Positions 57,146-63,343 of a stretch of DNA of 64,000 bases are shown piece after piece. The DNA is taken from positions 64,001-128,000 of the forward strand of contig OZ243972.1 of NCBI GenBank assembly GCA_965214705.1. Reading direction: 5' to 3'. Every line of letters begins with the position of its first letter. Position 1 is the stretch's first letter. The notes under the pieces were generated by a model. It was given only the letters and a program-made list of their open reading frames with translations, had not been told where the DNA came from and did not search any database. The position numbers were made by a program, and so were the translations under genes. The stretch comes from Alphaproteobacteria bacterium. GTDB taxonomy: Bacteria; Pseudomonadota; Alphaproteobacteria; UBA828.

Positions 57146-57236
57146 GTCCCACGCGGCCTCGCCCGTTCCCCGGTGGGACAGGCAAACAATAATTTCATGC
57201 GGGACGAGCCGGGATCATGCGGGATTCCCGGCGACA
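57146..57236 (+). repeat. Hairpin plus short 10-bp-phased GGGA(T/C) array (copy B)
   Basis: GTCCCAC/GTGGGAC stem, ACAATAATTTC, then GGGAC, GGGAT, GGGAT, GCGAC at 57201, 57211, 57221, 57231. Confidence 0.55.
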
Positions 57237-57478
57237 ACCGCTCGCCGAGATGGTGTTCGATGGGACAGCAGCCGGGCACATCCAACTTGCTGTCCACACC
57301 TGCCACGACCCGCCCGCGCCTGCTCATCATGGCGCCATCGTGACGCGCCCGCCGCGCGCCGTGCAGCGCACCATGGTCCGGAGCGTCGGGCGTGCCCGGT
57401 CGCTGTCCCGAGCGCTCTCAGGTGAGGTGGTCTTGCGCGCGCTCTCGCGCTATGAGGAGTCTTGCGGCTGGCGCATGT

Positions 57479-59754: not shown

Positions 59755-59874
59755 GTTTGCCACAATGGGGACCGGGCTGCGCAGCAGCCCGGAGCGCGCG
59801 ACCGCGCGCCGCGCCGAAGGCACGTAAGCCAAGCGAACGGAGTTCGCGCCCGGCGACTGAGGGGAATCAATAAA
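59755..59874 (+). repeat. Structured dispersed repeat, copy 1
   Basis: TTTGCC..CCGGGCTGC-GCA-GCAGCCCGG-AGCGCGCGACCGCGCGCCGCGCCGAAGGC..CAAGCGAACGGAGT..TGAGGG; matches 60843-60959. Confidence 0.8.
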
Positions 59875-59885
59875 GCACCCGCGCC

Positions 59886-60656
59886 TCACTCCGGCCCGAG
59901 TGACAGGATCGATGTGGGGCTGGTGCGAAACACCCGCGGAGCGATTTCCGTCCAGGATTCATAGCGATGATCCGGGCTCAAGTGGGATTCGCCGGGATCA
60001 GGTGGGATTGCGTGAGATTCGTCGGGATTGACCGGGACTGCGGGGAACTCTGCGGGATTCCACGGGTCCACCGGCACCGACGTGACGGTGCGGGGAGCAG
60101 GCGGGGGCGGCGGGGGCCTGCCCTCCACCTCCGCGCGGATGATGGCGACCGCCTCCGGCGAGAGCCCGCCCTGATCCTTGGGCTGGCCGGCGCGTGCCGC
60201 CTTCTTCGCCGCCCGCTCCCGGTCTTTGCGGAGCTTGTCGGTGCCTTCGATGCGCTTGAGGGTGAGGGCGAGGCGGGCGAGCTCCTCCGTCGACACGGGC
60301 TCTTCCCGCGCGCTGAGACGAGCCATGGTGGCGAGCGCCATCGTCCGCAGGGTCTCGATCAGGATGAGTCCCGCCTGGCCCTCCGGCCGTTCGCCCAGCG
60401 CGTCCACCCACGCCTTGATGGTGCGGTCGGTCTCCTGCTGCTGGCGGATCAGGTCGCGCTCGTTCTTGGCGTAGCGGCCGACGGCCGAGCGCGAGCATGT
60501 CTCGCCCTCGGCCCGGATGCGGGCGGTGATCTGGTCGATGGTGGCGCCGTCCGCGATGGCCTGATCGACGGCCTCGCGCAGCTTGGCCGGCAGGCGGTCG
60601 ATGGAGGAGCGGCCGAACGTCCCGGCCGTTGTGCTCTTGGGGGGTTCAATTTGCAT
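59886..60656 (-). CDS. DUF3486 / phage Mu gp27-like protein (putative small terminase) with a Pro-rich repetitive C-terminal extension
   Basis: GRSSIDRLP...SRSAVGRY...GLSPEAVAIIR pattern; start may be 60656 or 60692. Confidence 0.78.
   Translation of the reverse strand: MQIEPPKSTTAGTFGRSSIDRLPAKLREAVDQAIADGATIDQITARIRAEGETCSRSAVGRYAKNERDLIRQQQETDRTIKAWVDALGERPEGQAGLILIETLRTMALATMARLSAREEPVSTEELARLALTLKRIEGTDKLRKDRERAAKKAARAGQPKDQGGLSPEAVAIIRAEVEGRPPPPPPAPRTVTSVPVDPWNPAEFPAVPVNPDESHAIPPDPGESHLSPDHRYESWTEIAPRVFRTSPTSILSLGPE
59951..60070 (+). repeat. Twelve-unit 10-bp-period degenerate tandem array (nnnGGGATTn)
   Basis: Units: tccaggattc atagcgatga tccgggctca agtgggattc gccgggatca ggtgggattg cgtgagattc gtcgggattg accgggactg cggggaactc tgcgggattc cacgggtcca. 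Confidence 0.85.
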
Positions 60657-60770
60657 GGCGTGGCTGTGCTCGCGGGTGGTGTTGTGGCTCATCCGGCGAT
60701 GCTGCCCCACGCCGCCCCTCCCTGTGCACCGCACCATGGTCCGGTTTCTCTCCCCGGCAGCCAACGAAGC

Positions 60771-61055
60771 GTTTGCCCTGATGGGACCGGGCCGCGCAGC
60801 GGCCCGGTCGGCGCGACAGCGCCGCGCGGAAACAGACAGAGTGTTTGCCATGTGTGGAGCCAGGCTGCGGAGCAGCCTGGAGCGCACGACCGCGCGCCGC
60901 GCCGAAGGCGCGTAGGCAAGCGAACGGAGTGAGCGCCCGCCGTTGAGGGAAACGAAAAAGTGCGAGCGCCCGGCAATTGAGGGAAATGATTAGGTCAGGT
61001 CCGGAGCGCGCGACCGCGCGCCGCGCGCGCCTGGCGTCTGAGGGAAATGAATAAA
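60771..61055 (+). repeat. Structured dispersed repeat: full copy 2 (60843-60959) and partial copies (60771-60807, 60964-60990, 61001-61055)
   Basis: Same motif order as 59755-59874, with compensatory changes in the first stem. Confidence 0.8.
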
Positions 61056-61105
61056 CTAGCGCGCGCCGCCCGGCTTGCCTATGGTGCGGAATCGGTTCGC
61101 CGAGA

Positions 61106-61532: not shown

Positions 61533-62282
61533 ATGAATCAAGTGCCCCCATCAATCCATGAAACCGCCTTTGACTGCCCTCACTGTGGGGCGTTTGCGCA
61601 GCAGTCTTGGTTTTCGCTCACAGCGAACACAGAATACATTAGAGACAGACTTCCCATTGATGTCAGAGAATATGTTTTTCCTAATGCGGTTAATAATCAG
61701 CCGGCAATTCGCGATGCCGTTTTGGAGGGGTTTCCCGCTCTAAATCCTGTACGGAGCCAACCGGCATCTGCAACATTGTATTGTGTGTTTATTTCTAGTT
61801 GTTTTCGTTGCAAGAAAGTCGCAATTTGGATAGGCGACAACCTGATCTATCCGCAGAGCCGTGTGGCTCCTCCTGCAAACCCTGACCTCACAGGTGAAAT
61901 CCGTGAAGACTACGACGAAGCCAGTAGTATTTTGGATTTATCACCTAGAGGGGCGGCGGCACTTCTTCGACTCTCTATTCAAAAACTCTGTAAAGAACTC
62001 GGGCAGCCAGGAAATAACATTAACGACGACATCGCGGCGCTGGTTTCAGCGGGTTTGAGCCAACAGATCCAGCGGGCCCTGGATACGGTACGAGTCATCG
62101 GAAACAATGCCGTCCATCCGGGTCAGATTGATCTTCGCGATGATAGGGCAACTGCGCTCAGTTTGTTCACATTTGTTAACCTGATCGTAGACAAGATGAT
62201 ATCCGAGCCTAAGCGTGTCGCAGAAGCTTATAATAACTTGCCTGAAAGTGCGCGAGACGCAATCAAGGAACGTGATGCGTGA
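61533..62282 (+). CDS. DUF4145 (HEPN-like) domain protein with an N-terminal Zn ribbon
   Basis: CPHC...CFRC; DYDEA..I...SPRGAAALLRL; RVIGNNAVHPG; visibly AT-richer than the rest of the window. Confidence 0.8.
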   Translation: MNQVPPSIHETAFDCPHCGAFAQQSWFSLTANTEYIRDRLPIDVREYVFPNAVNNQPAIRDAVLEGFPALNPVRSQPASATLYCVFISSCFRCKKVAIWIGDNLIYPQSRVAPPANPDLTGEIREDYDEASSILDLSPRGAAALLRLSIQKLCKELGQPGNNINDDIAALVSAGLSQQIQRALDTVRVIGNNAVHPGQIDLRDDRATALSLFTFVNLIVDKMISEPKRVAEAYNNLPESARDAIKERDA

Positions 62283-63089: not shown

Positions 63090-63310
63090 ACGGAGGTGGC
63101 GTTTCGCGCCCGCGTGCGTTAGCGTGGGCCGGTCACGCAGCGTGGGAAGCCGGTGACGCCTGCCCTCAGTGAGGCGCGGGCCAGTCCGGCGCTGCCCCCG
63201 CAACTGTAAGCGGCGAGACGGACCCCGTGCGCAATTGCGCGGGCCACTGATCCGCAAGGATCGGGAAGGCCGGGCCCCGTCGACGACCCCGAGCCAGGAG
63301 ACCGGCTGCG
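63090..63310 (+). ncRNA. Cobalamin riboswitch
   Basis: GGGAAGCCGGTG, CTGCCCCCGCAACTGTAA, GCCACTG, GGGAAGG, GAGCCAGGAGACC upstream of cobU; 5' boundary approximate. Confidence 0.9.
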
Positions 63311-63343
63311 CGGCAGGGCTGCAACGTCCTCGGAGGGAGGATC

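Follow-up and report, generated by a model that had tools for sequence, protein, structure and literature searches.

The question raised by this locus is what a gene for a phage-type small terminase subunit (TerS), with a phased DNA repeat inside it, is doing between an SDR gene and a tRNA-Arg gene of a bacterial chromosome. The locus lies near the right end of the window, the 64,000-nucleotide (nt) stretch of alphaproteobacterial DNA that was analyzed, in which an open reading frame at 59886 to 60692 on the complementary strand would encode a protein of 268 amino acids. A sequence-only reading of the window had placed this protein in the DUF3486/Mu gp27 family of small terminases, and profile searches bore the assignment out. 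Phage_Mu_Gp27 (PF11985, DUF3486) matches amino acids 31 to 191 with an E value of 1.1e-24 and a score of 88.2 bits (cut-off, 28), covering profile positions 1 to 171 of 173, and PHROG 426, "terminase small subunit," matches with an E value of 6.5e-30. Mu gp27 belongs to the same family (PF11985, PHROG 426), and both Mu gp27 and ORF30 of phage B3 are annotated as terminase small subunits.

The conserved core of the protein (amino acids 27 to 191, encoded at 60120 to 60614 on the complementary strand) is predicted to begin, at the N terminus, with an HTH-like domain of three helices and to continue as a long helical hairpin. In the AlphaFold2 model, helices span modelled residues 4 to 7, 10 to 21, 26 to 35, and 42 to 73, followed by the hairpin at 81 to 142, with pLDDT values of 84 to 97 for the first 60 modelled residues. 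The segment encoded by the phased repeat is predicted to be a disordered, Pro-rich linker (pLDDT below 50), and beyond it lies a conserved C-terminal peptide, W.EIAP.V[FY]RT.P.SIL (59886 to 59960, complementary strand); linker and tail are both additions relative to Mu gp27. As modelled, the protein shows the general TerS layout of HTH, helical oligomerization hairpin, and C-terminal segment, and one study describes TerS in the same terms, with the C terminus contacting the large subunit, TerL (PMC6854486). A Foldseek search of the PDB returned no significant match to a solved TerS (none with E below 0.001; the TerS entries 6v1i and 2ao9 appeared at E values of 2.2 to 2.5), VIA-align yielded generic hairpins with Z up to 7.8, and the top BFVD match to the model was DUF3486.

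Within the gene, a 10-bp phased GGGAT array occupies 59951 to 60070, read on the forward strand, and is clearest between 59984 and 60058. The twelve-unit array described earlier is real and far above chance, with the correction that only 5 of the 12 units on a strict 10-bp grid carry an exact GGGAT (at 59984, 59994, 60004, 60024, and 60054), while five have one mismatch and two have two. The six in-phase GGGA[TC] cores compare with a maximum of three in 3000 dinucleotide shuffles and two in 3000 codon shuffles, and when the genome was cut into 9,898 tiles of 800 bp, just 2 contained four or more in-phase cores, one of them being this locus. Autocorrelation at lags 10, 20, and 30 is 0.48, 0.50, and 0.56, against 0.17 to 0.35 at other lags; Tandem Repeats Finder detects only part of the array.

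Upstream of the gene, 48 nt before its ATG, lies a palindromic motif, CCGGACCATGGTGCGGTGCAC, at 60724 to 60744 on the complementary strand, likely the activator site of a leaderless late-type promoter. The motif stands 47 to 48 nt upstream of the ATG in the cassette copies described below. A weight-matrix scan of the genome gave 61 rows above 15 bits, compared with none in a reversed-genome control, and 49 sites were kept after 12 rows were dropped as palindrome doubles or weak matches. At the 37 sites with an ATG at +47, position -11 is A in every case and position -7 is T in 36, from which we infer a sigma-70 -10 element and a transcript starting at the ATG. The dyad of the motif is centered at -43.5 from the ATG. 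Mu C is described as binding late promoters with a dyad at this same -43.5 position, a -10 element, and no typical -35 element (PMC2582627), and a PHROG 836 late-activator gene is present here. The systems differ in the sequence of the dyad, in the approximately 49 chromosomal sites and apparently leaderless transcripts seen here, and in the lack of any PF08765 match in this genome.

Gene and array at this locus belong to a dispersed family. Nine PF11985 matches are spread over three contigs of the genome. Five are sister copies of the present open reading frame, 80 to 91% identical at the nucleotide level over 781 to 1165 bp, and each of these sits between unrelated host genes. Across the genus, 17 of 20 relatives carry 1 to 15 matches (about 75 of the approximately 125 places listed were fetched, mostly by score), compared with a single match in 1 of 20 genomes outside it; a profile search over 711 relatives added no further context. 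The motif likewise occurs in 17 of the 20 genus relatives. Of the 49 motif sites, 30 are followed on the 3' side by an array of at least three units, most of them without a gp27-like gene. The corresponding figure for control windows is 82 of 5,236, and the four structural promoters have no such array. A gene-less cassette of this kind is present in the window itself just before tRNA-Leu (57196 to 57381, complementary strand), with the motif at 57361 to 57381 and a short GGGAT array at approximately 57196 to 57230. Both cassettes in the window are oriented alike, each upstream of a tRNA gene. In a quick tree that carried long-branch warnings and excluded three broken or partial rows, the motif-bearing gp27 copies and one TerL-adjacent copy from relative G003 formed a single clade apart from prophage-type gp27 (SH-aLRT, 95), and copies clustered by genome. 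Motif and array were absent from all ten prophage-type gp27 rows. Three relatives (G007, G008, and G009) carry a conserved 215-amino-acid gp27-like protein with neither motif nor array (L142, L145, L149).

Comparison of these copies bears on what the array is for. The earlier suggestion of selection on the DNA rather than on the protein stands in its first half and fails in its second. On the DNA side, the array persists at more than 20 motif sites that have no gp27, lies after the stop codon in the copies of a second clade (clade B), where its core is GGGCC, and has a similar counterpart at the left ends of Mu and B3. On the protein side, 23 loci yielded anchors on both sides of the array, and in 22 of them the distance between the anchors is divisible by 3, the exception probably reflecting a false anchor. 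Seven different distances occur, the shortest being 72 nt and the longest 132 nt, and they commonly differ by 30 or 9 nt, so that the C-terminal peptide stays in frame despite changes in array length. Pooled pairwise Nei-Gojobori estimates from non-independent sequences put dN/dS at approximately 0.36 for the peptide downstream of the array, 0.36 for the HTH region, and 0.50 for the whole core. By these comparisons the array region is constrained both as DNA and as protein. Arrays of the GGGCC type (at least three matches) occur in 8 of 9 genomes with clade-B gp27 and in none of the 12 others, a co-occurrence that shared, linked descent alone could also yield.

The same data speak to whether the locus is simply neutral debris, a decayed Mu-like prophage whose array is a minisatellite born of slippage. 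Broken and fragmentary gp27 copies do exist and array length varies from 2 to 18 units, as such decay would predict, but length changes preserve the frame, dN/dS is below 1, promoter geometry is invariant at dozens of sites, and host genes flank each copy. We regard this explanation as the least probable of those considered. A Mu-like prophage at the locus itself, intact or decayed, finds no support: the flanks are the SDR gene and tRNA-Arg, and no prophage was seen at the orthologous site in 18 relatives, read up to 1.5 kb beyond the SDR gene. Occupancy of the orthologous site is patchy: of 19 genomes, 4 have gp27, 3 carry motif and array but lack gp27, and 12 (9 of them with the tRNA in view) are free of any cassette. 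REP-like dispersed repeats lie on both sides of the gene, at 59770 to 59880 on the left (approximately 30 genomic copies) and, in the same orientation, at 60850 to 61060 on the right; the family forms approximately 38 clusters in the genome. In contigs from two sequencing runs, a joint with short sides skips 59867 to 60802 and may represent either the empty site or another REP copy. Sequence resembling gp27 is also covered by contigs of two RNA libraries, although assembled contigs cannot show transcription or packaging.

The note that the window holds no large terminase, portal, or other phage gene agrees with the open reading frames at 52 to 64 kb, five of which were profile scanned and among which no other phage structural gene was seen; such genes are, however, present elsewhere in the genome. 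The motif precedes an isolated Mu-like pair of TerL and portal genes, a head-tail operon (protease, major head, neck, tail tube, a 269-amino-acid tape measure, and J), and lysis-like genes that adjoin cI, Gam, and the PHROG 836 late activator. With nine PF11985 matches and a matching TerL, portal, head-tail set, and Mor/C-like activator under one promoter motif, the stand-alone module first proposed is not supported. Pfam profiles for Terminase_6N, Mor (PF08765), Mu gpT, Mu F, and the Mu protease had no match in the genome. Gene calling together with PHROGs nevertheless recovered TerL, the activator, the major head protein, and the protease, so the corresponding Pfam blanks reflect limits of sensitivity. 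Homologues of Mu F (gp30) and gp26 were not found in the genome, Mu F being detected neither by Pfam nor by gene calling and PHROGs, which speaks against a complete system. No Mu transposase was found in the genome, and no PF11985 match lies beside TerL in it. The motif also precedes a gene for a 290-amino-acid protein starting QRQIEANRRNA..STGPKT (G000:C1:3770934-3771806), which may be another member of the motif regulon; we take this protein family to be often orphan and multi-copy.

These particle genes are well conserved in the genus. The major head protein is present in 16 of 20 relatives at 91 to 99% amino acid identity, and TerL is likewise present in 16 of 20. Three genomes (G011, G015, and G016), which form a sister group in the host-gene tree, lack gp27, motif, major head, and TerL, and in a fourth, G018, the major head is absent although motif, TerL, and arrays are retained. 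Estimates of dN/dS are 0.25 for TerL and 0.16 for the major head (three sequences), beside 0.11 for a glnA-like control. The particle set of G003 is contiguous, lies next to the ATP synthase operon, and has a gp27 that lacks the HTH ahead of TerL; G002 and G018 keep parts of the set at the same site. The TerL-adjacent gp27 of G003 (L182:9088-9552) lacks the N-terminal HTH, and the two cassette copies of that genome keep theirs. Full Mu-like prophages in the genus are closely related to the resident genes (80% identity for major head, 69% for TerL, and 70% for portal). The related prophage in G002, whose packaging and head proteins are 69 to 80% identical to the resident ones, lacks the promoter motif, and the two proteins taken, from their size and position, as its putative transposition proteins have no match in this genome. 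The closest full prophages, also without the motif, have end arrays of the GGAAT rather than the GGGAT type. Judged by their sequences, the particle genes look domesticated: conserved, vertically kept, and without replication or transposition genes.

An indication of what the array may do comes from the ends of phage genomes. Mu (36.7 kb) has a single phased GGGA cluster with three cores, located at its left end (nt 33, 53, and 63, with a near-core at 43), and the same holds for B3 (nt 45, 55, and 75), giving phased GGGAT arrays at Mu nt 33 to 67 and B3 nt 45 to 79 that resemble the cassette array. Lag-10 autocorrelation reaches at least 0.35 in 8 of 11 phage or prophage ends, against a background of 0.22 to 0.29; three of the periodic ends belong to prophages of the genus, with arrays starting approximately 25 nt inside the terminal TG, and the ends of D3112, YPCBV-1, and vB_RhkS_P1 (3 of 11) show no such period. 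The Mu pac site, we presume, lies at approximately nt 32 to 54 of the left end. A search of PMC2628397, PMC5557969, and PMC3562280 for coordinates of a Mu-type pac gave none, and one of them describes the first packaging cut as falling in host DNA near one end, leaving approximately 50 bp (PMC5557969). The expectation of a pac site within or beside terS does not fit Mu-like phages, in which the ten prophage-type gp27 rows are array free and the array stands at the phage end. Phage gp27 is single, abuts TerL, and carries no array, whereas the cassette fuses gene and array, has its own promoter, is multi-copy, and lies far from TerL. Since the genome has TerS and TerL and no Mu transposase was found in it, we infer that a pac role fits the array better than a role as a transposase site, and because the phased repeat resembles that of the Mu left end, the locus likely marks a starting point for loading host DNA. 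The general idea of a TerS/pac module gains support from the anatomy of the cassette and from the phage-end arrays.

Phased boxes of this kind have another possible owner. The arrays could be operators of the ring-shaped host repressor MraZ, or of some other host protein, and not TerS sites at all. By eye, TCCCAT-type boxes at a 10-bp pitch are present in all 30 mraZ upstream regions inspected, cooperative binding of four boxes at 10-bp spacing is described in PMC12957436, and the cassette arrays share this pitch and a GG-rich core. MraZ boxes, however, overlap the mraZ promoter and keep CCCAT, whereas in-phase array units read CCC[AG][CG] or similar and lie 100 to 700 bp downstream of their promoters. 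The cassette arrays also vary by clade and track the phage-derived system: an A-type pattern has 1 to 3 matches in the three genomes where MraZ is present and the system is lacking, compared with 3 to 177 in the other 18. Cores of clade B and of the G019 type diverge further, and similar arrays stand at phage ends. We therefore consider MraZ or another host protein a very unlikely owner of the arrays. The left-end arrays of Mu (L199:31-70) and B3 (L191:41-80) also resemble MraZ boxes in pitch and core. MraZ itself is unusually divergent within the genus (G000:C3:1061193, L152-L181), with approximately 70% identity to close relatives and 44 to 57% to basal members, the latter similar to its identity to other families, and G003 carries two MraZ copies.

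Taken together, the gene content and phage-end comparisons lead us to favor, with moderate confidence, a reading of the locus as a pac-type packaging-start cassette of a putative domesticated, Mu-derived particle system that resembles a gene transfer agent (GTA) and is encoded elsewhere in the chromosome. Under this reading, a resident Mor/C-like activator would switch on all motif promoters together. The gp27-like protein would oligomerize and bind both its own array and the gene-less arrays, with roughly one HTH per helical turn. It would bring in the one TerL that the genome encodes, a contact that may involve the conserved C-terminal peptide. If the process resembles that of Mu, DNA would be cut first a short way to the left of the array, at approximately 59.8 to 59.9 kb, and loaded from there in the rightward direction, taking in the gene, its promoter, and tRNA-Arg. 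Cassettes would thereby sit at the front of the DNA they cause to be packaged, which could explain how they have spread. Several observations weigh against this reading: no solved TerS was matched significantly, 3 of 11 phage or prophage ends lack the period, the closest full prophages have a different array core and no motif, neither Mu F nor gp26 turned up in the genome, G018 has no major head, dN/dS for the gp27 core is as high as 0.50, mraZ operators share the pitch and most of the core, and the HTH of SF6 is largely indifferent to sequence. A more specific version, which we put forward tentatively and hold at somewhat less than even confidence, is a Mu-derived GTA with programmed multi-address packaging. 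Here the pac array of the phage end would have become joined to the downstream side of the TerS gene, come under control of the late activator, and multiplied over dozens of chromosomal sites; TerS paralogues would read differing cores, so that the host or the cassettes set which regions are loaded.

Spread of this kind could also be that of a selfish hitchhiker, a non-autonomous mini-element moved by REP-mediated recombination, a borrowed Mu-like transposase, or preferential packaging, with no directed gene transfer on behalf of the host. This alternative, which is partly compatible with the pac-cassette reading, is in line with the patchy occupancy of the orthologous site and the clustering of copies by genome. 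A REP-like repeat lies within 400 bp of 6 of 10 gp27 sites, compared with 34 of 2,618 control sites, and in 7 of 11 cassettes a further TGGGAY unit stands approximately 25 nt beyond the array, resembling a remnant of the left end of a phage. Set against these points, no conserved second end was found upstream of the cassette promoter, a 5-mer target-duplication test gave 3 of 7, and neither putative transposition protein of the related prophage gave a match in the genome. The single-copy head and terminase genes, moreover, are under purifying selection and use the same promoter. We judge a purely selfish element unlikely. Closely similar tyrosine integrase genes lie in divergent orientation beside two gp27 copies (L014:7537-8826 and L018:7895-9181), and a motif variant precedes another similar integrase gene (G000:C2:394788); such integrases are a possible route of cassette movement.

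The presence of closely related full Mu-like prophages in the genus invites a further alternative, in which the cassettes act as decoys: TerS-like proteins made in excess, together with dozens of arrays resembling pac, would jam packaging by related Mu-like phages or send it astray. The high copy number and the variety of array cores would be in keeping with such an arms race. Yet the related prophage has no promoter motif and a different array core, and a decoy would not require that genes for head, tail, TerL, and lysis be conserved and share its promoter, which makes an anti-phage role, in our estimation, decidedly unlikely.

The packaging-start reading places the cassette among several known systems. 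The feature is best described as a TerS/pac pair of the Mu type that has been remodelled into a dispersed cassette and belongs with a GTA-like set of genes descended from Mu, its likeness to pac resting on anatomy and homology. Like RcGTA and DsGTA, the set comprises host-kept, conserved, and split head, tail, packaging, and lysis genes, with no Mu transposase found and with a very short tape measure. It would differ from these GTAs in its Mu-like ancestry and its amplified TerS, and in having explicit candidate start sites. PMC6854486 describes the TerS of RcGTA as devoid of an HTH and states that packaging sites are not known for GTAs, and PMC5786225 describes DsGTA packaging peaks without motifs. 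The RcGTA-type loss of the HTH is not seen in the cassette proteins, which keep an HTH-like domain at a dN/dS of 0.36; the TerL-adjacent gp27 of G003 does show it. In the terS-pac arrangement of SPP1 and SF6, as presented in PMC4737164, pac overlaps terS and its promoter, and the HTHs of the ring lie about one helical turn apart, much as proposed for the cassette; the differences are an unrelated protein family, recognition in SF6 largely by DNA shape with an HTH that is largely sequence independent, and a single site per phage genome (PMC4737164). A full-text literature search, whose reach did not extend to older Mu packaging papers, found no publication on the phased array or on such cassettes; DUF3486 itself was mentioned in one of the papers covered.

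If the packaging-start reading is right, this system would offer explicit, mappable candidate packaging start sites of Mu-like origin, where GTAs have had no known sites according to PMC6854486. The naturally varied protein-array pairs, together with the end arrays of Mu and B3, would also provide a direct test of DNA recognition by Mu-family gp27.

Around the locus, an Rfam scan of the window from 57 to 63.5 kb returned two tRNAs and a cobalamin riboswitch, and nothing else; the riboswitch (63121 to 63324) precedes cobU and appears ordinary. Directly after tRNA-Arg lies a low-GC DUF4145 gene (61533 to 62282). Relatives carry differing low-GC genes at the same place, so this site looks like an insertion hotspot, and it would lie in the predicted packaging path.
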